A DNA stretch of 64,000 nucleotides from Cellvibrionales bacterium UBA1969. Lineage in GTDB: Bacteria; Pseudomonadota; Gammaproteobacteria; Pseudomonadales; UBA7434. The DNA is taken from NCBI GenBank assembly GCA_002339085.1, contig DDDX01000082.1, positions 4,058 through 68,057 of the forward strand. The letters are read 5' to 3'. Made by a program: the position numbers and the translations under genes. The notes beneath the pieces were generated by a model. It did not search any database, was not told the origin of the DNA, and was given only the letters and a program-made list of their open reading frames with translations. Positions 10,974 to 43,500 of this stretch are shown piece by piece. Within the stretch, counting starts at the first letter, position 1. Each line of letters starts with the position of its first letter.

Positions 10974-11025
10974 GATATTCCTCGCCTCTTTGGACTCATT
11001 TATAGTGATTATATTTTTCTACTTC

Positions 11026-11493
11026 TTACATAAGGACCATGGTTAATTCATAAATTAATGCTGGCCGCTCCTCACCAACAACATGTACATGTTGCTCAAG
11101 CGTAATACGTGTATTTTTTTCGGTGACCTCGATCGCTTTAATCCGACTACGGGAGTGAATAGTGCTACCCACTGTGACTGCGCCAGAAAAACGTAAACGG
11201 TCAGAGCCGTAGTTCATCATAAAACTATAACCGCTAATGTCACCGATCAAACTCTTTTCATTCGGCATTTTAGGCAGCAGTGACAGAATCAAAAAACCAT
11301 GAGCGATGGTGCAACCGTAGGGGCTTTCTTTCGCGCATTTCTCTTCGTCGACATGCATCCACATGTCATCACCCGTCATTTCAGCAAAATCACTAATTAA
11401 TTGTTGGTCGATGGTAAAGCTGCCACTCCAATCACTGAAGTCACTGGTGACCAAGCTTTGCAGCGCGTCGTTATCTTTAAAATCGATTGTCAT
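11026..11493 (-). CDS. MaoC-like (R)-specific enoyl-CoA hydratase/dehydratase, hot-dog fold
   Basis: 155 aa. Hydratase-2-like block FAEMTGDDMWMHVDEE and typical size. Confidence 0.7.
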   Translation of the reverse strand: MTIDFKDNDALQSLVTSDFSDWSGSFTIDQQLISDFAEMTGDDMWMHVDEEKCAKESPYGCTIAHGFLILSLLPKMPNEKSLIGDISGYSFMMNYGSDRLRFSGAVTVGSTIHSRSRIKAIEVTEKNTRITLEQHVHVVGEERPALIYELTMVLM

Positions 11494-11575
11494 AATGACC
11501 TCTCTGACTTAATCATGTACGGTGCTATTTTTTGTCTATCTACTATTATCTATCCAGCGAGTATTCCCTAATCAT

Positions 11576-12316
11576 TTAAGCAGAATGCGTCGAGCCATCG
11601 ACGCTTGGCCCTGTTAGGTTAGCTGCATTCATCTCATGACTTTCTGTTTCAGCCTTTACTTTTTGTAAATAATCTTTAGGCATACGAATAAACAGGCCTT
11701 CGCAGCTCGCGGTTAATGTATCGCCGGCATACATCTCACCACGGAGAATATTTTTTCTGCCCTCAACGCGATGAACCCTTCCATAGAGACGTAATTCCTG
11801 TGCTAGCGGTGTTGGCTTAATATAGCGCACTGACAGCGTGCCGGTAAAACCCGGCTGATCCGTTAACTTTTGGCCCATGCCTAAAAAGTCATCGAACAAA
11901 GCCGCGACAAATCCACCGTGGACAAAGCCGGGCGGGCCTTCAAACTGCCAGCCCATCGTCACTTTGCCATGCACTTCGTCACCAGCGATCCAAAGATGCA
12001 GAGGCGCCGTAATCGGATTACATAAACCAGTGATGGAACTGATCTCGTGACTGACAATACTGCCCTCTTGAAAGTGGTCTTGGTCAGGGTCCATGTGTGC
12101 TAATTTACCCAGTCGCTGCGGTGTTTCCGCCAAGCGATCGGCCTGCTCATTGATTAATGCGGTCATCGTCTCTAAGGTGTTGATGTCGGCAGAACTAGTC
12201 ACAGCCAACTCATTGATTCGCCTTAGAGCTGTGCCTAAATCGCGTCGAGCGGCCCATTGCGGCGTCGGTGCTACTGGCGGCTCTTCATAATCATAAGGGC
12301 CTAAATAAATTGCCAT
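11576..12316 (-). CDS. PaaI/4HBT-type hot-dog thioesterase with an N-terminal extension
   Basis: 246 aa. HGGFVAALFDDFLG block typical of PaaI-type thioesterases, preceded by about 110 aa of unassigned sequence. Confidence 0.6.
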   Translation of the reverse strand: MAIYLGPYDYEEPPVAPTPQWAARRDLGTALRRINELAVTSSADINTLETMTALINEQADRLAETPQRLGKLAHMDPDQDHFQEGSIVSHEISSITGLCNPITAPLHLWIAGDEVHGKVTMGWQFEGPPGFVHGGFVAALFDDFLGMGQKLTDQPGFTGTLSVRYIKPTPLAQELRLYGRVHRVEGRKNILRGEMYAGDTLTASCEGLFIRMPKDYLQKVKAETESHEMNAANLTGPSVDGSTHSA

Positions 12317-12711
12317 AAAATCTCACTGCATATTGGAGGTGCAAAGGTTAGATCCAAAAAATTTTCCCGGTTTTGCACCAGTCAATCGGTTCTCCATGGT
12401 AGACTAAACATGACCAACATCGATTGATCAAACTTGAGGCTGGACGACATTATCAACTTTACTCTCCTCCTAAAAACGTCGATTAATAAGCCAATTTTTA
12501 TGAAAGAGTACGGTATCAATGATTTAATTAGTGGACAACCTTATCGCTAACCACAATCCGTTGACAATGACCGCTTCAGCCAATCATCCAAAGTAGCGAC
12601 CGGTTCGCTCAAAAGGGTCAATAAAATGAGCATAATTAAGATATCAGCACTTATTGATCAAGTCGCAAAGCGTCTATAACCAGACATTCTGTAATCGAAA
12701 GGAGTAAACCC

Positions 12712-13719
12712 TTGGTCCAATATCACAGCATTATAGATATGATAGGCAACACACCTCTGGTGCGATTAAAACAAGCCTCGGAGATGACCGGCTGTGAAAT
12801 TCTCGGCAAGGCTGAATTTTTAAATCCTGGTGGTTCAATCAAAGACCGAACGGCCCTAGGAATTATCCGCGACGCTGAACGATCAGGCGCACTCAAGCCT
12901 GGCGGCACGATTGTCGAAGGGACTGCAGGAAACACCGGTATTGGCTTAACTATTTTGGCTAATGCGCTAGGTTACAAGAGCGTGGTCGTGATGCCCATGA
13001 CACAAAGTAAAGAAAAAATTGATTCGCTGGAATTATTTGGTGCTGAATTACACCTCGTGCCGGCTACTGCTTACAGCGACCCTAACCACTATACGCACTC
13101 TGCTGGCAGATTGGCAGAAGATCTAAATAGAGACAAACCTGAGGGAGTAATCTGGGCCAACCAATTCGGAAATACTGCAAATCGTGATATTCACTACACC
13201 ACCACGGGTGAGGAGATTTGGCAGCAAACGAATGGGCAGGTTGATGGCTTTATATGTGCAGCAGGCACCGGCGGCACGTTAGCGGGCGTCGCCAAAAAAC
13301 TGCGCGAGCATCGAAAAGATGTCCATATAGGCATTGCAGATCCGATGGGCTCATCGTTATATGAGTATTTTAAGTATGGTGAGTTAAAAGCTGAGGGCAG
13401 CTCAATCACAGAAGGGATTGGGATTAGTCACGTGACTAATAACCTGGGTGAAACGGATATAGACCACGCCTACCAAATTACTGATCAAGAGGCCCTACCC
13501 TTAGTATTTGATCTATTAGCGAACGAAGGGCTTTGCTTAGGAGGTTCTTCGGGGATCAATATAGCTGGCGCTATTGAGCTGGCAAAAACACTGGGGCCTG
13601 GCCACACGATAGTCACAATACTTTGTGACTATGGCACTCGCTATCAGAGTAAATTATTTAACCCTGTGTTTTTAGAAAATAAAGGTTTACCCGTGCCTGA
13701 GTGGTTGAAAATAGGATAA
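12712..13719 (+). CDS. PLP-dependent cysteine synthase / cystathionine beta-synthase family protein
   Basis: IGNTPLVRL, PLP-lysine context GGSIKDRTA, GTGGTLAG loop. TTG start at 12712 (alternative ATG 12739). Confidence 0.85.
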   Translation: MVQYHSIIDMIGNTPLVRLKQASEMTGCEILGKAEFLNPGGSIKDRTALGIIRDAERSGALKPGGTIVEGTAGNTGIGLTILANALGYKSVVVMPMTQSKEKIDSLELFGAELHLVPATAYSDPNHYTHSAGRLAEDLNRDKPEGVIWANQFGNTANRDIHYTTTGEEIWQQTNGQVDGFICAAGTGGTLAGVAKKLREHRKDVHIGIADPMGSSLYEYFKYGELKAEGSSITEGIGISHVTNNLGETDIDHAYQITDQEALPLVFDLLANEGLCLGGSSGINIAGAIELAKTLGPGHTIVTILCDYGTRYQSKLFNPVFLENKGLPVPEWLKIG

Positions 13720-19616: not shown

Positions 19617-20474
19617 ATGACTCTTAAAAATAATTTTCCAGGAATCCTACTGATGGTGTTAACCATTGGGCTGGCTTATTTTTCCTGGCTATTATTAAAA
19701 CCCGATAACGCTAGTGGCGACATTGAAAAGAAGTCTAACACTCAAACGGTCAATATAGCGGTTGCGGCAAACTACAAAAAAATATTATCTAATTCGATCA
19801 ATAAGTATCAGTCAGATAATCAAATAACAAAAGACTTCACCATAAATATAATTAGTGGGTCTACTGGCGCTCTATTCACACAAATTAAAAATGGAGCGCC
19901 CTTCGATCTATTTCTTGCAGCTGATATGGAGCGACCACAAACGCTAGTAAAAGCAAATTTAACCATTGAGGATAAGCCATTTATTTATACTACCGGTACG
20001 CTGGCTATTGCCTATCAATCGACGGGTGGTAAAGAATTTAATTGTGGGGACAATAATCTTGATCAGAGCCAGCTTGATCAACTAATAGATCATTTATTAA
20101 AAGAAGGTGAAGACAGTAAGACTATTGCTATCGCTAACCCAATTACCGCACCTTACGGGAAAGCCGCTGAAAAACTATTAGAAAAATTAAAGAGCATAGG
20201 AAAAGAAAATAGGGTTAAAATTATTCGAGGCAAGGATATCATTCACGCACAGCAAATATTATTGAGCGGACATGCTGATATGGCTTTTCTTGCTTCCCAT
20301 ATGGAGGAAGGGATAAATAAAGCTGGGTTTTCATATTGCTCGATCGATCGGTCATTGTACCCCCCGATTGAGCAGGGTATGGTATCTATAAAGCCTAAAG
20401 GAATGAATTATACACATCAATTAATCATAAATGAAATAATTGTCCACATTAAAAATATATCTGACAAAATCTAA
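19617..20474 (+). CDS. modA: molybdate ABC transporter, periplasmic binding protein
   Basis: SGSTGALFTQIKNGAPFDLFLAAD block typical of ModA. Followed by modB and modC. Confidence 0.8.
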   Translation: MTLKNNFPGILLMVLTIGLAYFSWLLLKPDNASGDIEKKSNTQTVNIAVAANYKKILSNSINKYQSDNQITKDFTINIISGSTGALFTQIKNGAPFDLFLAADMERPQTLVKANLTIEDKPFIYTTGTLAIAYQSTGGKEFNCGDNNLDQSQLDQLIDHLLKEGEDSKTIAIANPITAPYGKAAEKLLEKLKSIGKENRVKIIRGKDIIHAQQILLSGHADMAFLASHMEEGINKAGFSYCSIDRSLYPPIEQGMVSIKPKGMNYTHQLIINEIIVHIKNISDKI

Positions 20475-20476
20475 AT

Positions 20477-21166
20477 ATGCTTTTTGAAAATAATGACATC
20501 ACGGCAATATTTCTTACGCTGCAATTAGCCAGTATTAGCACATTCATTCTATTGATAATTGGTTTGCCATTAGCTTGGTGGTTAGCTCGAACCCATCATC
20601 GCGCAAAAATCCTTATTGAGACATTTATAGCAATGCCACTTATCCTACCGCCCACTGTTATTGGATTCTACCTTCTCCTCGCTTTTTCTCCTGATAATAT
20701 ACTCTCTCAGACTTGGGAAAACCTATTTAGCAGCTCGCTGGCATTCAGTTTTAGTGGTTTGGTTGTTGGGTCAGTCATCTACTCTCTTCCCTTTATTGTC
20801 CAGCCGATGCAAAGTGCCTACGAGCGGATACCTGATCTTACTCTAAAAACCGCCGCCTCTCTTGGAGCAAGTAAATTTGATCAATCCCTAAGTATTATTT
20901 TACCAATGACAAAGCGAGCAACAATTGCATCAGCTGCCTTAGCTTTCGCTCACACAATGGGAGAGTTTGGCATCGTGCTTATGATTGGAGGAAATATTCC
21001 TGGTGAGACGCAAGTGGTAAGTATTGCTTTATTTGAACATGTTGAATCGATGGCATATGAAGAAGCGCATAATTTAGCGCTTTTACTACTGGCATTCTCT
21101 TTTACTACCCTAGTTATGATAAATACGCTTAGCGGAAAGACTAAGCCAAGAGTACGACATGCTTAA
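20477..21166 (+). CDS. modB: molybdate ABC transporter permease
   Basis: 229 aa, 5-6 TM helices. EAA-like loop TAASLGASKFDQSLSIILPMTKRA. Starts 2 nt after modA. Confidence 0.85.
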   Translation: MLFENNDITAIFLTLQLASISTFILLIIGLPLAWWLARTHHRAKILIETFIAMPLILPPTVIGFYLLLAFSPDNILSQTWENLFSSSLAFSFSGLVVGSVIYSLPFIVQPMQSAYERIPDLTLKTAASLGASKFDQSLSIILPMTKRATIASAALAFAHTMGEFGIVLMIGGNIPGETQVVSIALFEHVESMAYEEAHNLALLLLAFSFTTLVMINTLSGKTKPRVRHA

Positions 21167-22274
21167 GTGTGATTTAAAAACGAGGCTCGGTGATTTTTTA
21201 CTTCAACTAAAATTTTCATTACCTAGCGATGGCATCACTGTTATTTTTGGTCAATCTGGCAGCGGCAAAAGTAGCCTCTTAAACATGATTGCAGGGTTTG
21301 ATCAGCCAACTGAGTATGGAAGCATTCACTTTAATGATCAAAACTGGTTGGCTCTATCACCTAGCGGCCAGATCGAAAAAACATCCATTCAACATCGAAA
21401 AATAGCCTACGTCACCCAAGCACCCTGCTTATTTGAACATTTATCTATTAAGCAAAGCCTTCAATATGCGATTGATCGACAACACCGAAATACAGTCAAT
21501 GACCAAGATAGCTATCCATCACTTACAGATATCAGCCAATATTTTAATATCAATTACCTATGGGAAAAGTTTCCTGAGCAATTATCTGGCGGGGAAAAAC
21601 AAAGGGTGGCTATCGCAAGAGCAATTTTATCTGCGCCACAGTTGATTTTATTTGATGAACCCCTAAATGGCTTAGATGAAAATCACCGCGAGCAGATATT
21701 AGGTCATCTAGAGAAGCTTCAACAAAAAATTTCATTGCCAATTTTGTATGTCACACATAATATGGAAGAGCTTATGCGTCTTGCGGACCGCGTGCTTGTT
21801 TTAGAGCAAGGCTCGCTGTTGGCACTCAAAAAAATTAGTGACATCCTCTCTGACTTAACACTCCCCTTTAGTCAACATCAGCAAGCAGGTGTTGTCATAT
21901 CTGCAAAGGTTCATTCTTACGATGAAATTAACCACCTAATCGAATTAGACCTGGGAGATAATCAATTTTTGTGGGTTACTAGCCCATCAACCAATCATTT
22001 AGCGGATGAAGAAATTCGTCTACGTGTTTATGCAAAAGACATTAGTCTAACCCGGCAACCAGCCAAAGATTCCAGTATTTTAAACATCATTCCTGTCAAA
22101 ATTATTGGCATCTCTGAATCAGGAGCTGGCCAATCGATTATTAAATTGAGCTGTCGCCAGCAGAATTTTCTAGCAAGGCTAACAAATAAATCCATCCAGA
22201 AGCTCTCGCTAAAGATTGGCGATGAAGTTTTTGCGCAAATCAAAGGGATTGCTATACTAGGCTCCAGAATCTAG
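21159..22274 (+). CDS. modC: molybdate ABC transporter ATPase with C-terminal TOBE/Mop domain
   Basis: Walker A GQSGSGKSS, signature LSGGEKQRV, Walker B LILFDEP, and about 130 aa of C-terminal extension. 8-nt overlap with modB. Confidence 0.85.
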   Translation: MLKCDLKTRLGDFLLQLKFSLPSDGITVIFGQSGSGKSSLLNMIAGFDQPTEYGSIHFNDQNWLALSPSGQIEKTSIQHRKIAYVTQAPCLFEHLSIKQSLQYAIDRQHRNTVNDQDSYPSLTDISQYFNINYLWEKFPEQLSGGEKQRVAIARAILSAPQLILFDEPLNGLDENHREQILGHLEKLQQKISLPILYVTHNMEELMRLADRVLVLEQGSLLALKKISDILSDLTLPFSQHQQAGVVISAKVHSYDEINHLIELDLGDNQFLWVTSPSTNHLADEEIRLRVYAKDISLTRQPAKDSSILNIIPVKIIGISESGAGQSIIKLSCRQQNFLARLTNKSIQKLSLKIGDEVFAQIKGIAILGSRI

Positions 22275-22311: not shown

Positions 22312-23682
22312 ATGAAAAAAATATACGGCCTAGCTCGATCCATCTTCATCACGACCCTGATAGTATTTACTATATTTTTTATCAGCATATTCACGATTTA
22401 TTATATTACCTTAGACGCCGAGCCGAAGCTCAGCAGCTTTGAGTCAATAACCTTAAGCGACATCAAACGAGTAAAAGTCATTGCCCAGCAAGTGACGGGC
22501 AATATGCAAAAGGAGTCAAGTGAGCAACAGATTACTCTCTCTGAACGCGATCTCAACCTAGCAATCGGTCATTTCGGGCCAAGCTTCGTTGAAATTCCCG
22601 ACTCAGTCTATGCCAAGATTAATCTATCAAACACAAGACAAAGTCTGCAATTGACCTTACCACTGGACTACTTGCTTGCATTAGGAAAAACTGAGCTAGA
22701 AGAACGATACAGCAACCTATTAACTTGGTTAAGCGACAGGACAAGCTATTTTCTCAAGAGCAATTGGATAAATATTGAGTGGGATATAACGACCGACAAC
22801 ATGGCTGAAAAAGGGTATTGGTTAAGTCCCGGGCAGCTTAGTATCGGCAAACTGACTCTTAGCCAGACGCAAAGTGATAAAATCGCTAAGCATATTATGA
22901 GAAGCCTTTTGAATAATCCTAATAGTGAGCCAGTACGCGAAGCATGGGAAAATATTAAAAATATAAACCATGAAGACGATCAAGTTGTGGTTAGCTATAT
23001 ATTCCCCAGCAGCGGTACTTCGTCTTTACGTAGCTATCAGTCATTAATTCTTAATCCTCGAGAGCAGGCACAAGTCAATATCTATTCACAAAAAATTAAT
23101 ACTCTCCCTAAAAAAACCCCATTGATACGGTTATTAAGCGCGATGTTTACTCTCGCCGCTGAACGTACAACCGACTTAGGTGATCCTGTCGGTGAGAATC
23201 GTGCTTTACTATTATCATTAGCCAAGCTCTATGGCGTCGATGATTTAAATGCTATCTTACAAGGCAATAATCTGGGTCAATTCAATCGCAAACGACTCAA
23301 TTACACTATTTATGGCCGCCGTGATTTAGCCCAACATTTAATTTTATCCGCAGGGATTTCATTGCTTGCGGATGAAGATTTAGCCAACCTTATTGGCCTT
23401 GATAAAGAGATTTCTGACTACCAAGCTGGTAAAACAATCAGTGCTTGGGACTTATTAGCAGACCAAGCCGGCATTCGTTTAGCAGATAATGCTACCCGAT
23501 CAGAGCAATCGGCAAGGCAGGTACAGCAGCTTCTGTCTGATGCCAACTCTGATAAAGACTTACTGCCTGATCTAGGCCCTGATTTCTCTTATGCAAAAGA
23601 TCAATTCGAAGTCGGCGACCTCGATGAACTGAATCAACTAACAAGTTTAATCCTTGATGAATTAGTCATTTTTAAAAAATAA
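22312..23682 (+). CDS. membrane-anchored hypothetical protein
   Basis: 456 aa. One N-terminal TM helix (IFITTLIVFTIFFISIFTIYYI) and no motif I recognise. Confidence 0.5.
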   Translation: MKKIYGLARSIFITTLIVFTIFFISIFTIYYITLDAEPKLSSFESITLSDIKRVKVIAQQVTGNMQKESSEQQITLSERDLNLAIGHFGPSFVEIPDSVYAKINLSNTRQSLQLTLPLDYLLALGKTELEERYSNLLTWLSDRTSYFLKSNWINIEWDITTDNMAEKGYWLSPGQLSIGKLTLSQTQSDKIAKHIMRSLLNNPNSEPVREAWENIKNINHEDDQVVVSYIFPSSGTSSLRSYQSLILNPREQAQVNIYSQKINTLPKKTPLIRLLSAMFTLAAERTTDLGDPVGENRALLLSLAKLYGVDDLNAILQGNNLGQFNRKRLNYTIYGRRDLAQHLILSAGISLLADEDLANLIGLDKEISDYQAGKTISAWDLLADQAGIRLADNATRSEQSARQVQQLLSDANSDKDLLPDLGPDFSYAKDQFEVGDLDELNQLTSLILDELVIFKK

Positions 23683-23834: not shown

Positions 23835-26348
23835 ATGGCGTCAATCCCAACGCGTAAAGCCTTGGTCATCAACCCTGATCCCAGCTTGCGTAAGACAATG
23901 GCTCAGCAATTACAGCAATATCATTTTGCTGTGATTGTTGAAGCCGGTAATGGGCTCGAGGCTATCAATATCTTAGGCGAGCAAGCCGTTGATTTAGTCG
24001 TTACTGACATCGCCATTGGTCAAGTCGATGCCTGGCGACTGACTCGCCTCATCCGCTCCAATATGCTTGCCTCATCGGCCCAAACTAAAGTGATTGTCGT
24101 GTCTTCCACCTACAGTGAGCGTATTGCTGAAGCAACTGCCAAAGAGTTTGAAATTAATTGCTTCATACCTATGAGCCGACTCTCTGACTTAGGAAAGATC
24201 GCTGATAACTTACTACATAACGACAATGCTGTTGTTTCGAAAGCGCGCATTCTGGTGATAGAAGATTATCAAGATACCGCTGAATTAGTTGAACGGGTAC
24301 TAAGTAATCGTTTTGAGATAACTCATGCCGCGGATGGCGAAATCGGTCTACAACTTTGGCAGCAATATCAACATGATATTGTTTTATTAGATTTAATGCT
24401 GCCTAAATTATCTGGCGAGGAAGTACTACGAAAAATTATTAAACAAAAACCCAGTCAATCTATTGTCATGATGACGGCTCATGGCGATGCCAAGAAAGCC
24501 GGTGAATTGATTATTGCGGGAGCCATCGACTTTATTGCAAAGCCATTTCGAGCAGAACAATTACGGCATGTTTGCAGTATTGCCGCTCATCGCGAAGATT
24601 TTATTATTAGCAATGAGCAATTCAAGGAAAAACAAAATGCCTTGATCGCAGAAAAAAGTCGTGCCCAGATCACACTTGAATCTATTGCCGACGGTGTCAT
24701 TACCACCGATAGCTCAGGTAATATTGACTACGCTAACCCTGTCGCAGAAAAATTATTAAATGAATCGCTCGACGATCTTATTGGCCGATCGATTGATACC
24801 GTGTTTCACACCTACCATGAAGTATCACGAATTCCAACTGCAAACCTTGTTAAGCGGGCAATTGCTGAAAACGCAATTATCAATTCAGTTGCTAACCATA
24901 TTCTAAAAACTAAGGATAACCAAGAAAGAATTATTGAGCAGCAAGCGGCGCCTATTAGAGACTCTAAAGACTGCGCTATTGGCGCGACATTAGTGTTTCG
25001 AGACAAGACAGAAGCAAAAAATATTGAAAAACAACTATCATTTCATGCCAGTCATGACCCCCTGACTGGCTTAAATAATCGCGCTACCTTTGATCAAGAA
25101 GTCAAATTAGCCGTTCATGAAGTGGCAGACAATGAGCTTCATCACGCCCTTTGTCATTTATCAATATCACAATTTAATATCATTAATGAAACCTGCGGCC
25201 ATCATGCAGGCGATCAATTGCTTCAGCAAATCGCTCGTACACTCCGACAAAAAGTCCGCTCACCTAGCGATGCCATAGCACGGGTTGGCGGCGATGAATT
25301 TGGCATTCTTCTTAGGCATTGCCCCATTGATGCCGCACAGCGCATTTGTGAAGTTATTACCTGTGAATTTTCAAATCAAAAGTTTAACTATGAAGATAAG
25401 TCATTTGACATAAATGTTGGCATTGGCATCGTTTCTATTAATAATGAAACTACTGATCTAACTGAGCTTATTTCAGCATCCAGCGCTGCATGTAACAAAG
25501 CGAAAGAAAGCGGAAAGAACCGTGTAGCCAGCTACAGTGGAAAAGATGAAACAATTTATGCCAAACGAACGGAAGCCTTTCTAGCGACCGAGCTTATGGA
25601 AGCAATACAAGAGGGACGTACCTGCTTATTTCAGCAGCGCATCAGCAACCGAGCCACACAAGGACAAGACAGTTATGAAATTCTTCTGAGAATTCGCGAC
25701 AAGGATGATCATCTTATCAGTCCCGAACCCTATTTAGAGGCCGCCGAACGCTATAACTTCAGTCCTAACGTCGACCGCTGGGTCATTAGCCAGGCCTTTG
25801 AGTGGCTGGGCAATCATCCATCGACACTGCATAATATCGAATATATATCGATTAATCTTTCAGGCCTGTCTATCTGTGACGACAGTTTTTCAGAATTTAT
25901 TTCAGACTGTTTTAGAAACTCATCAGTGCCACCTGAAAAAATCTGCTTTGAAATCACTGAAACAGCAGCTATTTCAAACTTCCTGAATGCGCTTGAATTT
26001 ATTGGTGCGGTTAGAGACCTTGGGTGTCAGTTTGCATTAGATGATTTTGGAAGTGGCATGTCTTCCTTTGCTTACTTGAAAAAATTACCGGTTGATATTT
26101 TAAAAATCGATGGCTTATTTATTAAAGATATCCTTAACAACCCAGTTGATATGGCAATGGTTAAATCGATCAATGAGGTAGGCCATGTGATGGGGCTTAA
26201 AACCATTGGCGAATACGTTGAAAACCGTGCCATACTAGAGGTGTTAACCGTACTAGAGGTTGATGCGTTTCAAGGCTTCGAAGTAGCCAAGCCAGCTCCC
26301 ATAGAGGAACTCGCTAAAATACCAGCTATTAAAAAAACCGGCTCTTAG
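23835..26348 (+). CDS. response regulator with REC(degenerate)-REC-PAS-GGDEF-EAL architecture (c-di-GMP turnover)
   Basis: REC2 is canonical (VIEDY, LLDLMLP, MMTAHG, IAKPF). PAS region (ITLESIADGVITTD). GGDEF motif RVGGDEFGILL. EAL-domain blocks YEILLR, CFEITE, DDFGSGMSS, LKIDG. Confidence 0.85.
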   Translation: MASIPTRKALVINPDPSLRKTMAQQLQQYHFAVIVEAGNGLEAINILGEQAVDLVVTDIAIGQVDAWRLTRLIRSNMLASSAQTKVIVVSSTYSERIAEATAKEFEINCFIPMSRLSDLGKIADNLLHNDNAVVSKARILVIEDYQDTAELVERVLSNRFEITHAADGEIGLQLWQQYQHDIVLLDLMLPKLSGEEVLRKIIKQKPSQSIVMMTAHGDAKKAGELIIAGAIDFIAKPFRAEQLRHVCSIAAHREDFIISNEQFKEKQNALIAEKSRAQITLESIADGVITTDSSGNIDYANPVAEKLLNESLDDLIGRSIDTVFHTYHEVSRIPTANLVKRAIAENAIINSVANHILKTKDNQERIIEQQAAPIRDSKDCAIGATLVFRDKTEAKNIEKQLSFHASHDPLTGLNNRATFDQEVKLAVHEVADNELHHALCHLSISQFNIINETCGHHAGDQLLQQIARTLRQKVRSPSDAIARVGGDEFGILLRHCPIDAAQRICEVITCEFSNQKFNYEDKSFDINVGIGIVSINNETTDLTELISASSAACNKAKESGKNRVASYSGKDETIYAKRTEAFLATELMEAIQEGRTCLFQQRISNRATQGQDSYEILLRIRDKDDHLISPEPYLEAAERYNFSPNVDRWVISQAFEWLGNHPSTLHNIEYISINLSGLSICDDSFSEFISDCFRNSSVPPEKICFEITETAAISNFLNALEFIGAVRDLGCQFALDDFGSGMSSFAYLKKLPVDILKIDGLFIKDILNNPVDMAMVKSINEVGHVMGLKTIGEYVENRAILEVLTVLEVDAFQGFEVAKPAPIEELAKIPAIKKTGS

Positions 26349-27202
26349 CTTTTTTCATGTGACATATCCGGTAATGCTCTTTTGGCCGGTCCAGTATATT
26401 CTACATCATCACACCTTAGCGGCAAAAAACTGTCTGCCGGTTTTTTAGCCTCTTCACAAAAACTGGCGGTAACACCATTGACAACTATCAATGCAAAAAT
26501 TCTATGGACTTGCTCTGCTGAGTAACCTAAATCCGACATAAAGGCACACAAATAACCGGTAAAATTCATCGTCTCTGAGTAACGATCATACAATAGCTCC
26601 TCTATAGCTAACGCTAATTGCATATGCGGCCCATCTTGAAATGCAAGATTTTTTGCAGTCCTTCGCATCGCAACTACTCTTTCATCACCTGACGCTAATG
26701 GCCGAGCAAAACCCATAATATTAACCTTACCGCCCTTACGCTCAATCTCCTGATCAACAATTTCCTCAACTGATTTTCTTTCATTAATATGCTGCGAATA
26801 AAAGCGCTGTATTAAACGAGTTCCTATAGGCAATGTACCTTGGCCATACATCACGGAGTCAGCAGCAAGGTTTCCAAAACTGCTAGCTGCATTTACGGTA
26901 GCTCTCGCCATCGCAGCATAAGCACCAATTTGATTGCACCAAATGCGCGGATCAGGCCAGCTGACACAGATATGTGCTGCATGTAGCCATTTAGCAAACC
27001 GGTCTTCTGGTAATTGGCCAGTAATGTTAAGGACCAAACTCTGAAAAAAATCTACCTGCCCCACCAAATCGTCCATCATATCATAACCGCGACAATAGAC
27101 TGCAGTACCTGGAACCCAACCGCCTGTCCGATTAGGTAATTTACCCCGTAAGCGATCGTAATCTTCTACTTTAAGTGTCGACAATGTGATAATCCTCATC
27201 AC
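26345..27202 (-). CDS. citrate-synthase/citryl-CoA-lyase-fold protein, paralogue B, catalytic residues apparently substituted
   Basis: 285 aa. CS-like blocks VYCRGYDMMDDLVGQVDFFQSLVLNITGQLP, MGFARPLASGDERV (where GFGHxVxxxxDPR is expected), MNFTGYLCAF (where NVDFYSG is expected). Overlaps the upstream paralogue by about 30 nt. Confidence 0.55.
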   Translation of the reverse strand: MMRIITLSTLKVEDYDRLRGKLPNRTGGWVPGTAVYCRGYDMMDDLVGQVDFFQSLVLNITGQLPEDRFAKWLHAAHICVSWPDPRIWCNQIGAYAAMARATVNAASSFGNLAADSVMYGQGTLPIGTRLIQRFYSQHINERKSVEEIVDQEIERKGGKVNIMGFARPLASGDERVVAMRRTAKNLAFQDGPHMQLALAIEELLYDRYSETMNFTGYLCAFMSDLGYSAEQVHRIFALIVVNGVTASFCEEAKKPADSFLPLRCDDVEYTGPAKRALPDMSHEKS

Positions 27203-27992
27203 TAACGAATGGAAACTCTGTGCGGGACTTAGGGTAAGCTTCTAACCCATGGGCAAGTAAACCAGGGGCTTGTATGAGTTGAAATAGGCCCGCGCCAGCA
27301 TAGGCTGGAAAGCCTAAATCGCAGAGCACTGCCGCAACAATGCCGGTTTGCAACCAGCCTATATCGTATAACTTTAATCCATCAACAAGTTCAGCGCACC
27401 AAGTTAAATGAGGCCCTGAAAAAGATTTCCCTAAAAACTTATTTGCTAATCGAGTGGCATATGGATCAACATCACCATACTGCTGGCCAAAACCATAGAT
27501 AATCCGCCCTTCAGCCAATAACAATTTATCCGCTAGAGCTAAAGTGGCTTGCTGCTCCTCAAGCCATTTTTTAGGTAAAGTCTGGTAGTTATTCTGGATA
27601 AAGTGCATACAAAGTTGCACTTGGCGGCCACCTAAGTATTCACCTCCTGCAATACCTAGTGATGCAGGAAGAATGTGCTGAGGAAAGGTTTTTCCTCCGC
27701 CCAAACTCATAGCCGACCTTGAAGCCGGATGTCTTGGGCTTGGGCTAATAAAGGTAGTTAACAGCAATTGCAGTAATTGCTTTTGATTTTTGTTAGGTAG
27801 ATCACCTAAAAAAAGCAAGTAGAATGTATCAATAAAATCACATTGCTCTGTGATTTCATCAAAACTATATCCTCTCAGATGAGTTTTACTAACAAGATAA
27901 GGATTAGACTCATCAGCATCTTCTTTCCAAATGCTGGTTGAGGCTTTTTTTGAAAAAGGTTCCTTTCGACTTTTAACCGAACGGTTGACCAT
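27171..27992 (-). CDS. citrate-synthase/citryl-CoA-lyase-fold protein, paralogue A, catalytic residues apparently substituted
   Basis: 273 aa. HLRGYSFDEITEQCDFIDTFYLLFLGDLPNKNQ (classic CS small-domain block), YGFGQQYGDVDPYA, LQTGIVAAVLCDLGFP, GLLAHGLEA. Starts 10 nt after the TonB-receptor stop. Confidence 0.6.
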   Translation of the reverse strand: MVNRSVKSRKEPFSKKASTSIWKEDADESNPYLVSKTHLRGYSFDEITEQCDFIDTFYLLFLGDLPNKNQKQLLQLLLTTFISPSPRHPASRSAMSLGGGKTFPQHILPASLGIAGGEYLGGRQVQLCMHFIQNNYQTLPKKWLEEQQATLALADKLLLAEGRIIYGFGQQYGDVDPYATRLANKFLGKSFSGPHLTWCAELVDGLKLYDIGWLQTGIVAAVLCDLGFPAYAGAGLFQLIQAPGLLAHGLEAYPKSRTEFPFVSDEDYHIVDT

Positions 27993-28002
27993 ACTATACG
28001 CA

Positions 28003-37644: not shown

Positions 37645-38718
37645 CTACTGATGATAATACGGGGAAAACTGCTTAACCGCTTCGATAAAGGCGGCCGCAT
37701 GTTCGGGTTCAACGTCTGGCGTAATGCCATGCCCGAGATTAAAAACGTGGCCAGAGTCTGCGTCATGCTGCCCGTAAGACGCGAGCAATCTTTTGACTTC
37801 TTCTTCAATAACCGAGATAGGCGCCAATAATATATTAGGATCCATATTACCTTGCAACGCTACTTGCGATCCTACTTTAGCTTTTGCAATACCGAGATCC
37901 ACTGTCCAATCAAGGCCAACCGCATGGCAGCCGCATTGGCTAATAGCCTCCAACCAAGGTGCTCCACCTTTAGTGAAAGCAATAACAGGCACCACCGTAC
38001 CATCCGGTCGATTAACCTTTAAACCAGCAATGATCTTCTGAATATAATCCAGCGAGAATTCCAAATAGCTGGCGTGACTAAGGACACCGCCCCAAGTATC
38101 AAATATTTGTACTGCTTGCGCACCGGCATCAATCTGGGCGTTCAAGTAATTAGTCACTACTATCGCCAACTTATCTAACAACAGGTGCATAGCCGTTGGA
38201 TTGGCATAAAGTAAACGCTTAATCTTTTTAAATTCGCGGGTCGAGCCACCTTCAACCATATACGTGGCTAGTGTCCAGGGGCTGCCGGTAAAGCCAATTA
38301 ATGGCACGGCCCCATCCAAGGCTTGGCGAATCATAGTGACCGCATCCATCACGTAACGTAGATCACTCAACACATCGACTGATAGATTTTCAATATCGGT
38401 CTGCGAACTAATAGGACGCTGGAATTTAGGCCCTTCTCCTTCGGCAAAATAGAGGCCCAACCCCATCGCATCAGGAATCGTTAAAATATCAGAAAATAAA
38501 ATAGCGGCATCTAAAGGAAAACGCTGCAATGGTTGCAAGGTCACTTCCGTTGCCAGCTCTGTGTTTTTACACAGCGACAAAAAATCACCTGCTTTAGCCC
38601 TTGTAGCACGGTATTCCGGCAAATAGCGCCCTGCCTGACGCATCATCCAAACCGGTGTCGCATCTACCGGTTGACGAAGCAGTGCGCGAATAAAACGATC
38701 GTTTTTTAATGCAGACAT
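37645..38718 (-). CDS. hemE: uroporphyrinogen decarboxylase
   Basis: [16 protein letters not shown] signature. 357 aa. Confidence 0.95.
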
Positions 38719-38748: not shown

Positions 38749-40506
38749 TTAATAGACATCACGTAAATAACGCTTTTCACGCTTAAGGTTATTCACATAA
38801 TCGGTGGCTTTTTCAGTATTCATTGTGCCGTGTTGCGCAATCACATCGGCAAGCGCTTGATCAACATCACGCGCCATTCGGGTTGCATCACCACAAACAT
38901 AAAAGTAACCGCCCTGCTCTAACCATGAAAACAGTTCGGCGCCATGTTGTTTCATTTTATGCTGCACATAAATCTTCTCGGCCTGATCTCTAGAAAAAGC
39001 TAAGTCGAGACGAGTTAACACACCCTGTTCTTGCATAGCGGCCAATTCATCTTGATAAATAAAATCAAATTCACGAGTTTGATCGCCAAAGAAAAGCCAA
39101 TTTGGCCCGGTTGCTTGACGCTCCTGCCGCTCCTCTAAAAAAGCTCTAAATGGGGCAATACCGGTTCCTGGCCCAACCATAATCATTGGCGCAGCGTCGT
39201 CAGCGGGAATACGAAATGACTTATTAGTAGAAATAAAAATGCCCGCTTTATCACCTTCAGCAACTCGATCAGCAAGAAACGTTGAACAAACTCCCAAATG
39301 CTGCCTAGATTCATATGACCATCGAACCGCCGCTACAGTTAAATGAACAGAACCGGGGTGTTTATTAACACTGGAGGATATCGAATACGCTCGATGCTGT
39401 AACGGCTTAAGTAAAACCAAGAGTTCGTCAGCAGTAAAACTCACTTTTTCTGTTAATTGCAGTAAATCAAGAATGTCCTTCGCCCACAAAAAATCAGCCA
39501 ACGCTTCTTTGTCACCATTCTTAAATACATGACTAAAGGCATCGTGATCGGCAATTTTTTCTACTGCAGCGATGAGCTCTTTAGAAGGGGTTGAAATCTC
39601 GTACTTATAAGTCAGCAACTCACCAAGCGTGCGCTCCTGACCTTCGAGCACGGTATCAGCAGACAATGAAAAATAAGCCAACAAAGATTTAACTAAGCCA
39701 GCATCATTAACCGGCATCACATTAAGCGCGTCACCAACTTCATAGCTCAAATCGCTATCGCCAAGGTCAATTTCAAAATGACGAATCTCTTTAGCCGAGC
39801 CTTCGGCCGATAACAATAGATTTTTTGTAACGGTAGCCGGATAAGGGTTTTTTCGATTCCAAATTGATTTTACCACCGCTGATTCCGCCTGAAGCGGAAT
39901 AGTCGTTACAACGGCATCACCATCATTCGCTAACGGTATGGTGGTATTAATCCACTCTTCAGCCATATCTTCAAAATCAACATCACAGTCAACGCGATCA
40001 ACTAAGCGGGTAGCCCCTAATTGTTCCAAACGCATATCAATAAGCTTACCGGCCTGACAAAACTCATCGTAACCCGTGTCACCTAAAGCTAATACGCCAA
40101 ACTTCATATCAGGTAATTTCGGCATATCACTAGCAGACAGTGACTGCCAAAATAATTCGGCGTTATCAGGCATTTCACCCTCGCCGTAAGTCGCGACTGA
40201 AAAAATGACTTTTCCCATCTGAGCAAAATCTTCTATACTCACGTCATCCATACCCTGAACCACAGGATTAAATCCTTGACTTCTAGCCACATTAGCAGCA
40301 TCCATAGCAATACCTTCAGCATTACCAGTTTGACTGCCGTATAAAATATCCAGCCGTGGTGCAACTTGACCAGCAGTCGCAGTTAAAGATGCATTTTGCT
40401 GATCTGCCATCTGCTTAGCAGATTGTAAGCCCGCTAAAAAACCGGCCAACCAAGATTTTTGGTCACCCGTAAAAGGGGCATCATCGGGTATAAAGGGAGG
40501 TTTCAT
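38749..40506 (-). CDS. CysJ-type diflavin reductase (flavodoxin FMN domain + FAD/NADPH FNR domain)
   Basis: 585 aa. YGSQTGNAEGIA (FMN), RAYSISSS (FAD), GPGTGIAPFRAF and YVCGD (NADPH), C-terminal RYLRDVY. Starts 9 nt after the gltB stop. No cysI is adjacent. Confidence 0.85.
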   Translation of the reverse strand: MKPPFIPDDAPFTGDQKSWLAGFLAGLQSAKQMADQQNASLTATAGQVAPRLDILYGSQTGNAEGIAMDAANVARSQGFNPVVQGMDDVSIEDFAQMGKVIFSVATYGEGEMPDNAELFWQSLSASDMPKLPDMKFGVLALGDTGYDEFCQAGKLIDMRLEQLGATRLVDRVDCDVDFEDMAEEWINTTIPLANDGDAVVTTIPLQAESAVVKSIWNRKNPYPATVTKNLLLSAEGSAKEIRHFEIDLGDSDLSYEVGDALNVMPVNDAGLVKSLLAYFSLSADTVLEGQERTLGELLTYKYEISTPSKELIAAVEKIADHDAFSHVFKNGDKEALADFLWAKDILDLLQLTEKVSFTADELLVLLKPLQHRAYSISSSVNKHPGSVHLTVAAVRWSYESRQHLGVCSTFLADRVAEGDKAGIFISTNKSFRIPADDAAPMIMVGPGTGIAPFRAFLEERQERQATGPNWLFFGDQTREFDFIYQDELAAMQEQGVLTRLDLAFSRDQAEKIYVQHKMKQHGAELFSWLEQGGYFYVCGDATRMARDVDQALADVIAQHGTMNTEKATDYVNNLKREKRYLRDVY

Positions 40507-40515
40507 GCACGGTTC

Positions 40516-43500
40516 TCATAATTGACTCACATTAGGTAATAAATCATTCATCGCGTTGAAGGCAAATAGCTCTTCAAAGCTTGGAATTCGACCTAATGCT
40601 GTTTTGTTTTTCTGTTGCTGATGGATAATCCAGCCATAAGTAGCTGGGCTGTCCATCGATATAATATTACGCAAACTTAGCGTCTGTTTAAAATCGTTTA
40701 ATCGTTTATTAGCAATCATTGCTGCCAGCTCACTATCACTATAACCAGCAATCGCTTGGCGAGAGTGACGCAATAAACCATTCATTAAAGCAAAATCTTC
40801 AGTCAAAATCAGATTGCGCGTAGCTTTAACCGCTTCAGGATGCTGAACATCATTGATAGAGGGCAATTTTTTAAGCGCTAATTTTTGTGCTGTATCTAAC
40901 ACGGAATAGGTATTCAATAATTCATATTTCTTGTCACCATCATCGCCAAGTTGCGTGTCTGGCACGAAACCATGAAAGACGGGCTGCCCTGAGCGCCAAG
41001 CACGTTTAAGCTTATTGACTTGGTGAGCTGCAAGCGCTGTCGCCAACTCTTCAAGTAACTCTTTACGTGGTTTAGCCGCTAAAATAGCCTCAGAGTCTTG
41101 ATACTGCAGTAATGCACGCGGAATGATGTAGGAAAAATTCTTTTTCTCAACATCCCAATTGGCCAGCAATTGCTTTGCCTTTTGCGAGTTGGTTGCCTCT
41201 ACGTGCCAAACTAATAATGTCTTAACCGCTTGCGCATGAATGTCCGATTGCTCAGAGCTTTCTGATAATGAACCCAGTAGTACTGAGTCATGGCTAATAC
41301 TGTCAGCAAAAAGACAGTCAGGATCATATTGGTAGGCAAAACCGCCGGACATACCATTACCAAACCCTTTAGAAAAACCACCTAAGTTTAATACTGCACC
41401 GTTGGTCATATACTCGCAACAAAAATCACCCACGCCTTCTACAACTGCTGTCGATCCAGAATTTCTCACCGCAAATCGATCACCCGCTTGACCTTCAATA
41501 AAGACTCTTCCGCCTGTTGCGCCAAATAAAGCAAAATTGCCTATCAAAACATTATTACCCATGGCTTGATTTTCGCTGGCAGGCGCATGCACCACAATCT
41601 GGCCACCACACGCGGTTTTACCCACGCCATCATTACAGGTGCCCGTATGCTCCAACACCATGCCGTCATTACAGAAAGCACCGTAAGACTGACCAGCGGA
41701 ACCATGTGTGGCAATATTAACGCTTGCTTCGCGAAGGTAGCGTCGGCCACGCTGGTCTTGTAATACTGCGGGCAAATCGATATCAGCCAATTCATGATTC
41801 AGGATGCGTTCTAAGTCAATTGCCAACTGACCACCGACACTTTTATTGCAGTTGTTTAAATGACGGCTATCAGGAACAGTAACCGATAATTGTTTGTTAT
41901 CGATTAAGGCTTGTCTAACATGGACAAGAAATTGATCGTCGACAGCAAAATCTCGTTCCATATAAATAGGATTATCAACTTTAAACTCATCGACCACTGT
42001 CAACATAGCTCTTAAATCTAATTGGCCAACCGAGGAAGGGTGATCTAACAGATGCATTAAATCACTTCGACCTCTCGCCTCGCGTAAAGACCGCAAGCCA
42101 AGCTGGGCAAGAATTTCTCTCACCTCATGAGCAATATTCAATAAATATTGACCCAGTGCACGAGGATCGCCATCAAACACTTCTGGGTTAGTAGTCAAAC
42201 CTGCAGGGCATTTGATGTTGCAGTTTTTTGCCATTACACACTTCAGCATCATCAATGCCGTGGTGCCAAACTCAAAACTGTCGCCGCCCATTAAAGCAGA
42301 CTTCACTACGTCAGATCCGGTTTGATGGGCACCAGAGCAGCGGAGGATGACCTTGCTGCGAAGACCGTTTGCAGACAACGCTTGATGTACTTCAGCGATA
42401 CCGATTTCTGCCGCACGGCCCGTGTATTTGAGCGATGTGACTGACGCTGCACCCGTGCCGCCGGTATTACCCGCAACATTAATAACGTCAGCGCCTGCCT
42501 TGGCAACACCAACAGCAATGGTGCCTATACCATCGGATGATACGAGCTTAACAATCACACGTACTCGTGCCGCTTTGGCATCGTGAATCAGTTGAGCCAA
42601 ATCCTCGATTGAATACGTGTCGTGGTGCGGTGGTGGCGAAATTAACTCGACACCGGGCACACCACCGCGAGCAGCGGCAATTTCAACATTTACTTTTGGT
42701 GCAGGCAATTGACCGCCCTCACCTGGCTTAGCGCCCTGACCAATTTTAATTTCAACTTCCTCAAGCATGGGGTCAGCTAGATACCCTGCCCATACACCAA
42801 ATCGGCCCGACGCAAACTGCTTAATCCTTGAAGCGCGAATAGTACCGTATCGAGATAGATGCTCCCCCCCCTCACCACTATTCGACATACCCCCGACCAT
42901 GTTTGTGCCGTGCGCAACTGCCTCGTGAGCAGTCGCGACTAAAGCACCATGACTCATTGCACCAGAGGCTAAAAATGGGGTTATCTCACTGGCGGCCTGC
43001 ACCTCTTCAAGTGGTAGAGCGGGCAGTGCCGAGCGCAAACGCGTGAGGTAATCGAGCGCTTCGTGGCTTGCAGTTATGAGCAGACGTTGCCCTTTAATTT
43101 GATGGCTTATAATATTATCACCAAAGCGATCGATAAACGAAATGGCTAATTGCTCAAGTCGCTTAGCATCATTAGCTTTGCTGCCGGTTAATTGTAAAGC
43201 AAAGTCAGTCTCACTAAGTGGTTCGCAATCCAGGCCACGAATAACAAAATCATTATTACCAGCACGGTTAAATCGCATCAATTCTTCGCGAAAATCATCT
43301 GCCTTATCGATAAAACTAATATCGGCAGGAAACGCCAAAACATCGCGCAAAGCGGCAGGTCGCCGAGCTCTTTCTTCTGCCATAGAGCGTGAGAATTCAC
43401 GGTATCCGGGCGTGATCTCAAAGTTATTAACTTCATCGTTAGTTAATCGATCAAAGCTAGTGTTGGTATAGCCTTCCTCACTGATGCCAAATGCACTCTC

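Follow-up and report, generated by a model that had tools for sequence, protein, structure and literature searches.

Paired citryl-CoA-lyase-fold proteins without the catalytic triad, conserved beside a thiamine-diphosphate enzyme in a receptor and cyclic-di-GMP gene module

Two overlapping genes in a 64,000-nucleotide stretch of DNA from Cellvibrionales bacterium UBA1969 (GenBank assembly GCA_002339085.1, contig DDDX01000082.1, positions 4,058 to 68,057 of the forward strand; the whole stretch is called the window below) encode proteins, A and B, that are predicted to adopt the short, citryl-CoA-lyase (CCL) type of the citrate synthase (CS) fold and that lack all three residues of its catalytic triad. 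The loss almost certainly goes with a conserved alternative function and not with decay. Moreover, the pair recurs across phyla next to a gene for an enzyme dependent on thiamine diphosphate (ThDP), with which A and B probably form a functional unit, in a seven-gene module that also includes an outer-membrane receptor and signalling genes.

Two proteins of the citryl-CoA-lyase type

The genes, their overlap and the kinds of evidence for them are as follows (aa, amino acids; nt, nucleotides; ORF, open reading frame; AF2, AlphaFold2).

27171-27992, minus strand: protein A, 273 aa, triad-less CCL-fold protein (ORF, Pfam/NCBIfam, match to structure 6hxp, AF2 and Foldseek, family alignment A1)
26345-27202, minus strand: protein B, 285 aa, second triad-less CCL-fold protein (ORF, Pfam/NCBIfam, match to 6hxp, AF2 and Foldseek, family alignment A2)
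27171-27202, minus strand: overlap of the A and B genes, 14-32 nt according to the B start codon used (direct sequence reading)

Both minus-strand reading frames of the initial annotation are present and overlap as described there; the stop codon of A is TAA at 27173-27171 and the overlap measures 14-32 nt because B has three alternative start codons (GTG at 27202, ATG at 27199 and TTG at 27184). Neither N-terminus showed an obvious signal-peptide-like stretch when read by eye.

The assignment to the CS fold was borne out by profile matches to a solved structure and by structural searches with predicted models. Scores against Pfam Citrate_synt (PF00285; gathering cut-off 27 bits) were 29.2 bits for A and 33.1 bits for B, each over part of the model. 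The NCBIfam CCL models gave 47-80 bits against curated cut-offs of 193-261 (best with PRK06224, 75.1 bits for A and 80.5 bits for B; cut-offs 212 and 245), CCL and CS model scores together falling 3- to 20-fold under their cut-offs, and neither Pfam nor NCBIfam holds a model specific for the A or B family. The best solved relative of both proteins is 6hxp, the CCL of Hydrogenobacter thermophilus, with E values of 2e-14 (A) and 4e-13 (B) for the single sequences and 4e-27 (A) and 9e-15 (B) for the family profiles. The monomer models built with AF2 on the family alignments are confident overall (predicted local distance difference test score 89.9 for A and 81.3 for B), with low confidence precisely in the C-terminal tails. 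The top Foldseek matches of both models were 6hxp and the CCL modules of ATP-citrate lyase (ACLY), at template modelling (TM) scores of about 0.65-0.73, with full citrate synthases ranking below them (TM 0.36-0.48 on target length) and a Foldseek probability of 1.0 against CS, CCL and ACLY structures.

At 273 and 285 aa there is no room for the small (acetyl-CoA-binding) domain of CS; the N-terminal RGY...(L/F)L..GELP block has been retained, as has the GxxAHxxE helix. As modelled, A and B are short CCL-type proteins of the CS fold, and this assignment is sound. Aligned to one another by hhalign they reach 97% probability at 21% identity, each is about equally distant from CCL as from the other, and judged from their sequences they are distant, not recent, paralogues.

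Loss of the catalytic residues

In CS, catalysis involves His274 and Asp375, which contact the acetyl group, and oxaloacetate or citrate is held by His320, Arg329, Arg401, Arg421' and His238 (bioRxiv 10.1101/2024.11.06.622199). These positions, numbered here as in pig CS, were located in A and B by phmmer, profile hidden Markov model (HMM) and MAFFT alignments, and family columns were read over about 200 homologues per family. None of the motifs that 6hxp carries at the catalytic sites (SAHGG, GYGH...DPR and NVDG) is retained in A or B.

His274 site: SAHGG in 6hxp; GGEYLGG in A, no His; DSVMYGQGT in B, no His
His320 site: GYGH in 6hxp; GFGQ in A, with Q170; GFAR in B, with invariant R167
Asp375 site: NVDG in 6hxp; LQTG in A, with T216; NFTG in B, with T215
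27483-27494, minus strand: A residues 167-170, GFGQ, with Gln at the His320-equivalent position (family column variable, S/Q/T/R/N/K)
27345-27347, minus strand: A T216, Asp375-equivalent (family column T 131 / P 41)
26678-26716, minus strand: B residues 163-175, MGFARPLASGDER, with the His320-equivalent invariant Arg167 and the Arg329-equivalent invariant Arg175 (profile alignments, family columns)
26558-26560, minus strand: B T215, Asp375-equivalent (family column N 154 / T 8 of 203)

As aligned, the register of His274 is ambiguous in both proteins: in A it falls on Leu120 by phmmer, Gly121 by the profile and Tyr119 by MAFFT, and in B the three methods gave Thr122, Met118 and Tyr119, the last being that of the initial annotation. 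The His residues of A lie at positions 38, 88, 106, 130, 195, 248 and 269 and those of B at 74, 77, 138, 193, 233 and 282. By this census neither protein has a His within about 8 residues of either catalytic His position (in B, none in residues 110-125 or 160-175) or an Asp in the NVD loop, and thus no small register shift restores the triad. A regular-expression search of A and B with the CS signature G-[FYA]-[GA]-H-x-[IV]-x(1,2)-[RKT]-x(2)-D-[PS]-R, which we take to be the PROSITE pattern, gave no match.

The initial annotation had read the absence of all three residues from a manual alignment, and phmmer, profile HMM, MAFFT and the residue census each bear it out; no method places His/His/Asp at the catalytic positions. 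That A and B are an ordinary CS or CCL, with a triad hidden by manual misalignment, is therefore barely credible: the Pfam Citrate_synt score slightly over the gathering value and the name 'citrate synthase' given to homologues by NCBI and JGI would favour it, but all three alignments, the census and the NCBIfam cut-offs fail to support it and refute it at the sequence level. A misaligned register is ruled out by the three alignment methods together with the direct census.

A-family proteins labelled 'citrate synthase' or 'citrate/2-methylcitrate synthase' in NCBI or JGI include P0009, P0018, P0020, P0049, P0066, P0067 and others. Since the catalytic residues are missing, these labels are probably a systematic misannotation of the A family.

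Most residues that bind oxaloacetate are replaced as well. In A, His238 corresponds to P84, Arg329 to Y178, Arg401 to Q241 and Arg421' to Y268. In B the Arg329 equivalent R175 is kept (in an invariant D-E-R), His238 falls in a gap, Arg401 corresponds to V240, and an Arg, R263, sits two residues upstream of the Arg421' column.

The further proposal that the residues were replaced in the same way, as parallel substitutions in the two paralogues, does not stand, as the family columns of A and B differ at all three sites. At the His274 site, the A-family column of Y119 reads H 104 / Y 66 / F 11, about half of the members keeping His, versus S 64 / M 50 / T 35 / A 30 in the B family. At the second position Arg is invariant in B, and at the Asp position the A family has Thr or Pro versus Asn in the B family. 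Nor do Tyr and Thr at these positions define a clade by the column counts, Thr being found in 8/203 B members. Thus the Thr that A and B of the window have in common is a lineage feature, not a clade feature.

Conservation and purifying selection

Database relatives, counted in 90%-identity clusters, number 171 for A and 654 for B, at about 40-53% identity. When one genome of each species was scanned with a pattern, 215 stretches were confirmed to hold B-type genes; their carriers include Cellvibrionaceae, Gallionellaceae/Sideroxydans, Desulfuromonadales, Chromatiales, Colwellia, Paraglaciecola, Teredinibacter and Motiliproteus. Among carriers in culture are Cellvibrio mixtus J3-8, Teredinibacter waterburyi Bs02, Colwellia sp. 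RE-S-Sl-9 and Pseudomaricurvus alkylphenolicus; Desulfobulbaceae and cable bacteria are among the protein-database matches. An exhaustive profile search (E<1e-30) gave 166 clusters at 50% identity, and among about 150 best representatives the triad was present in none and the P-G-P-R-[HD] hallmark loop in all. At least two divergent A subfamilies exist.

Two marine Cellvibrionales-type metagenome-assembled genomes (L004 and L005) match the window at about 94% identity. For A, the ratios of nonsynonymous to synonymous substitution rates (dN/dS) against L004 and L005 were 0.21 and 0.13; for B they were 0.11 and 0.055. These values resemble those of neighbouring genes. Mean column identity is 56-65% across phyla.

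In the family alignments A1 and A2, the invariant residues cluster in six segments lining the CS active site. For A they comprise N83-P-G85-P-R87, G117/G121, G167-F168, P243-G244...E251 and P261 of the tail; for B, SWPDPRIWCN (81-90), Y119-G120, G164...R167-P168, D173-E174-R175, N213 and C247, and in the tail F259-x-P261...G271...R275. The loop at the position of the CS His238 loop is prominent in each.

27708-27749, minus strand: A residues 82-95, ISPSPRHPASRSAM, a remodelled loop in place of the CS His238 loop (R87 common to both A subfamilies)
26933-26962, minus strand: B residues 81-90, SWPDPRIWCN, an unbroken stretch of ten invariant residues where CS has its His238 loop (family alignment)

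Both have an Arg at the matching loop position (R87 in A, R86 in B). The hallmark loop of the A family is N-P-G-P-R-H, SPSPRHPA in the window protein; the B family is marked by the SWPDPRIWCN loop, G-[FY]-A-R-P...G-D-E-R and a FLPLRC tail. Patterns that hold across subfamilies are W-x-E, N-P-[YF], the N-P-G-P-R loop, P-G-F and P-G-x-x-A-H-x-x-E for A, and S-x-P-x-P-R-x-W-x-N, Y-G, G-Y-[AG]-R-P...D-E-R and the F-x-P tail for B. The window proteins carry all of these cross-subfamily invariants, in the order A then B.

The loss of every catalytic residue could indicate a CCL gene in decay or present in sporadic, pseudogene-like copies, but this reading is refuted by the conservation and has a negligible probability: the ORFs are intact in 215 stretches, the family spans 166 clusters and dN/dS is 0.05-0.21. 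The initial annotation had named sporadic, pseudogene-like homologues as what would overturn its reading, and both the conservation and the dN/dS values run the other way; its preference for a conserved alternative function is upheld by the dN/dS, by hundreds of homologues and by the invariant residues in former active-site loops. Pseudogene decay is ruled out by the homologue survey, the profile search and dN/dS.

A and B as a pair

A lies directly upstream of B in 83/83 loci from other genomes, mostly overlapping, and adjoins B in each of the 80 species-representative genome loci fetched, again mostly with overlapping ORF calls. Natural A-B fusions, in the order A then B, occur in four clusters (P0248, P0337, P0351 and P0384), that of P0351 being present on five contigs; at one locus (L085) the ThDP gene is followed by an A-B fusion and then by receptor, short-chain dehydrogenase/reductase (SDR) and kinase genes. 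The fusions and the adjacency support contact between A and B, so that a heteromer is very probable. The 1:1 heteromer first suggested from the gene overlap remains likely, with A and B adjacent in 80/80 loci and fused in four independent clusters.

Linkage to a ThDP enzyme

Two genes upstream of the pair lies the gene for a ThDP enzyme, which is likely a physical partner of A and B.

30294-32192, minus strand: ThDP-dependent enzyme of the acetolactate-synthase (ALS) superfamily, 632 aa (three TPP domains, GDG...N motif, activating Glu)

By these features, the activating Glu lying in ARHETGA, the enzyme looks catalytically intact and should be active. Its closest solved relatives are BbmA and CsmA (PDB 8x3x and 8x3z; E 1e-86 and 6e-73), to which it is far closer than to ALS (1e-49), and it shares the C-terminal PP(G)MK.R.D.L tail with BbmA and CsmA. 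A search with a BbmA fragment matched just unnamed 'thiamine pyrophosphate-binding protein' entries, at an identity of at most 61%. At about residues 58-85, in its N-terminal ThDP domain, the window enzyme also has an inserted basic segment of about 25 residues (HKGEIPQTSVHHSRALERKRSRSVSGP). BbmA and CsmA lack this segment, and it is shorter in P0367, a fusion described below.

Co-occurrence was counted in the 48 loci with at least 7 kb on both sides of B.

A near B: 48/48
TonB-dependent receptor near B: 46/48
ThDP enzyme within 10 kb: 44/48
REC-PAS-GGDEF-EAL regulator near B: 43/48
Histidine kinase near B: 32/48
PF04392 binding protein near B: 23/48

The complete gene set of the window recurs in L004, L005 and many other loci. 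Gene order and strand within the module are shuffled between clades, suggesting that the linkage is functional and not inherited. With the second, divergent A subfamily (alignment A3) as query, 80 metagenome loci were retrieved; most of the about 50 contigs of at least 6 kb among them hold the same gene set, typically in the order ThDP enzyme, A, B, receptor and binding protein, the ORF calls abutting or overlapping.

One protein, P0367 (885 aa), is a fusion of a ThDP enzyme to A, three TPP domains being followed by an A-like domain, and the next gene is B-like; as a single case it weakly supports contact between the ThDP enzyme and A. Its locus (L084) carries no receptor or signalling genes, and thus the ThDP-A-B trio can stand alone. 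P0367 and the B-like gene occupy positions 10001-13542 of this locus (Logan contig SRR33375164_26334), with a SET-domain protein, a nicotinamide mononucleotide transporter, a MatE pump and glycolytic genes as neighbours.

Further genes recur around the module. An SDR lies in or next to it in 25 loci, sometimes directly after B (L095, 2104-2862; L085, 8749-9495), the order in L095 being ThDP-A-B-SDR; near the module of the window no SDR is present. A YfiR/DUF4154-like periplasmic protein occurs in 14 loci and a single-domain receiver in 11.

A full-text literature search, with subscription journals largely outside its coverage, found no description of the A/B family, of triad-less CS proteins or of the module. 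The seven-gene module is not described in the libraries searched and is uncharacterised.

Other genes of the module and of the window

The remaining genes of the module in the window are the following.

28003-30036, minus strand: TonB-dependent receptor, 677 aa, Plug and barrel (library scan)
32544-33557, plus strand: PF04392-type substrate-binding protein, divergent from the ThDP gene (domain scan)
33529-35187, plus strand: sensor histidine kinase, sCache_4-HAMP-HisKA-HATPase (domain scan)
23835-26348, plus strand: REC-REC-PAS-GGDEF-EAL response regulator, convergent with B (ORF and domain scan)

The seven genes are packed within about 12 kb (window 23835-35187). ThDP enzyme, receptor, A and B form a row on the minus strand, with 10 nt between the stop codon of the receptor gene, upstream of A, and the start of A; the ends of B and of the convergent regulator gene overlap by 4 nt (26345-26348), likewise in L004. 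The domain scan detected no STN or other extra domain in the receptor. The binding protein is presumably periplasmic, and no ABC permease was found near its gene. As to cargo, comparison with solved structures gave only generic CirA/BtuB plug-domain matches for the receptor and no match for the binding protein, neither yielding a clue, and an Rfam scan of the window for a riboswitch or other RNA clue to the receptor cargo gave no match. Promoter and terminator scans gave no signal above shuffled background.

Just upstream of the GGDEF-EAL gene lies a gene for a 456-aa protein without a Pfam match (22312-23682, plus strand), homologues of which adjoin the module in 7 related Cellvibrionales-type loci (e.g. 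L050, 14101-15498). Three consecutive genes at 19617-22274 (plus strand) resemble an ABC (ATP-binding cassette) importer, possibly of the molybdate/sulfate type, with an SBP_bac_11 binding protein (the gene covered by the Pfam scan), a 229-aa ORF and an ATPase-like ORF. Farther away, a flavodoxin/FAD/NAD reductase gene (38749-40506) and a uroporphyrinogen decarboxylase gene (37645-38718) are followed downstream by a very large ORF of 1828 aa (40516-46002, minus strand). A 91-aa ORF at 30417-30692 (plus strand), antisense inside the ThDP gene, is most likely spurious.

A model for A and B and its alternatives

Starting from the observed fold, triad loss, purifying selection, gene linkage and fusions, we propose that A and B act as a ligand-binding partner of the ThDP enzyme, a model to which we give about an even chance. 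In this model A and B are ancient paralogues of the short CS/CCL fold that lost the acid-base machinery for Claisen and retro-Claisen chemistry and kept a strongly conserved, remodelled pocket, A with its N-P-G-P-R loop and B with S-W-P-D-P-R-I-W-C-N plus G-Y-A-R-P...D-E-R. They would assemble into an A-B heterodimer or A2B2, in which each C-terminal tail may complete the pocket of the partner, as happens in CS dimers. This heteromer would dock on the neighbouring ThDP enzyme as a non-canonical partner, where it would bind, capture or present a substrate or product of the carboxylate or CoA type. One candidate ligand is a tertiary 2-hydroxy acid, the product type of a ThDP carboligase and akin to the citrate-type ligands of CS; the idea follows from the CS pocket having evolved to hold citrate-type ligands and from B retaining two oxaloacetate-binding arginines or their neighbours. 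The ThDP-A-B trio would then be the cytoplasmic enzyme core of the module: the receptor may import a related compound into the periplasm, where the binding protein and the kinase would sense it, and the GGDEF-EAL regulator would then set the level of cyclic di-GMP (c-di-GMP).

Alternatively the A/B pocket may itself be catalytic, carrying out a separate step on the product or substrate of the ThDP enzyme (decarboxylation, retro-aldol cleavage, isomerisation or thioester hydrolysis are candidates) through new Arg, His, Asp, Cys or Asn residues. Several lines of evidence favour such new chemistry: i) SWPDPRIWCN, R87-H88 of A, and R167, D173-E174-R175, N213 and C264 of B lie in loops equivalent to the active site; ii) the ThDP-A-B-SDR loci parallel operons of ALS, acetolactate decarboxylase and reductase; iii) the trio stands by itself in L084. 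On the other hand, several of the candidate catalytic residues vary between subfamilies, H88 of A being His in one subfamily only and Asp in the other, and to our knowledge no CS-fold enzyme works without the triad. We therefore regard this alternative as possible, though doubtful.

A second alternative makes A/B a cytoplasmic sensor or adaptor of the signalling pathway, which would bind a metabolite or c-di-GMP and communicate with the histidine kinase or the GGDEF-EAL protein, the ThDP link being secondary. A/B pairs and fusions do adjoin kinases on contigs that show no full-length ThDP gene (L086, L089 and L091), and the GGDEF-EAL regulator is present in 43/48 loci and abuts B in the window. 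These contigs are just 5-15 kb long, however, so that a ThDP gene may fall outside them; linkage to the ThDP enzyme (44/48) is as strong as that to the regulator (43/48); a ThDP-A fusion exists and the trio of L084 occurs without signalling genes; and no c-di-GMP-binding motif was seen, though no test was aimed at one. A sensor or adaptor role is thus improbable.

Several observations weigh against the proposed partnership of A/B with the ThDP enzyme: i) the ThDP-A fusion is known from one cluster on one contig; ii) in some distant relatives (L086 and L089-L091) A/B stand beside histidine kinases, and the contigs of L086, L089 and L091 showed no full-length ThDP gene, that of L090 just a weak, 212-bit ThDP-like ORF; iii) in variants whose contigs showed no ThDP gene, B or A is fused instead to an extra domain, which matches DUF1805 weakly, at an E value of about 2e-3, under the cut-off; iv) the module holds no conserved inner-membrane transporter or exporter; v) the extreme conservation of the pocket would suit genuine catalysis no less than binding. 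With these points taken into account, a functional unit of A/B with the ThDP enzyme is still probable. The extra domain of about 130 aa (CGSHGG...DAGxGKDxAG...ARIGxGxD) forms the C-terminus of a B-like protein in L086 (7218-8531) or the N-terminus of the A-like P0356.

More speculatively, the module as a whole could be a small-molecule circuit, in which the ThDP carboligase and a CS-fold heterodimer with new chemistry would make a secreted hydroxy-acid or acyloin signal or a metallophore, the TonB-dependent receptor would re-import it, the binding protein and kinase would sense it, and the GGDEF-EAL protein would provide a c-di-GMP output. We consider this circuit unlikely; if it is real, A and B would be the first CS-fold proteins shown to work without His/His/Asp.

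The CS fold is usually seen as a one-mechanism fold. Here a large, strongly constrained and phylogenetically broad family dropped the CS mechanism and kept the pocket. Either the chemistry is new, or the fold has come to serve as an enzyme partner subunit of a new kind. The ThDP enzyme, A and B would make up a testable functional unit, linked with an outer-membrane receptor and with c-di-GMP signalling, with environmentally important biofilm and sediment bacteria among its carriers. Moreover, the 'citrate synthase' labels of A homologues, almost certainly wrong, could distort metabolic reconstructions of the tricarboxylic acid cycle or its reverse.

Comparison with known systems

A and B belong to none of the known arrangements compared here, failing the catalytic features of CS and CCL as well as the NCBIfam cut-offs. 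Like A and B, the H. thermophilus CCL (6hxp) and the CCL modules of ACLY have the CS fold in its short form (about 260-285 aa), and the fusion of a CCL module with a partner enzyme in ACLY has a counterpart in P0367, which joins an A-like domain to a ThDP enzyme. On the other hand, SAHGG, GYGH..DPR and NVDG are present in CCL and absent from A and B; CCL and ACLY form homo-oligomers, whereas here two diverged paralogues are paired; and the partner module in ACLY is succinyl-CoA-synthetase-like, whereas that of A/B would be a ThDP enzyme. With CS and 2-methylcitrate synthase (PF00285), A and B have the homologous large-domain fold in common; unlike CS they are without the small domain, His274, His320, Asp375, His238 and Arg401, and A is also without Arg329.

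On the side of the ThDP enzyme, acetohydroxyacid synthase (AHAS, IlvB/IlvN) likewise has an ALS-family ThDP subunit beside one or more translationally coupled small partners that are not ThDP enzymes, a likeness to be read as an analogy only. The small subunits of AHAS (IlvN/IlvH) are ACT-domain proteins; A and B have the CS fold instead and come as a pair, and they sit in a receptor and c-di-GMP module rather than in an amino-acid operon. BbmA and CsmA are the closest solved kin of the module's ThDP enzyme, and among the A/B profile matches there was no solved structure of a CS-fold partner of either. The SDR-bearing loci (ThDP-A-B-SDR) recall ALS-decarboxylase-reductase operons.

In evolutionary terms, A and B resemble dead paralogues of the prozyme type, such as the prozyme of S-adenosylmethionine decarboxylase (AdoMetDC) in T. 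brucei, an obligate partner that lost its catalytic residues under purifying selection (PMC5201418). In contrast to that system, here both paralogues are triad-less, and the active partner would be an enzyme of unrelated fold.

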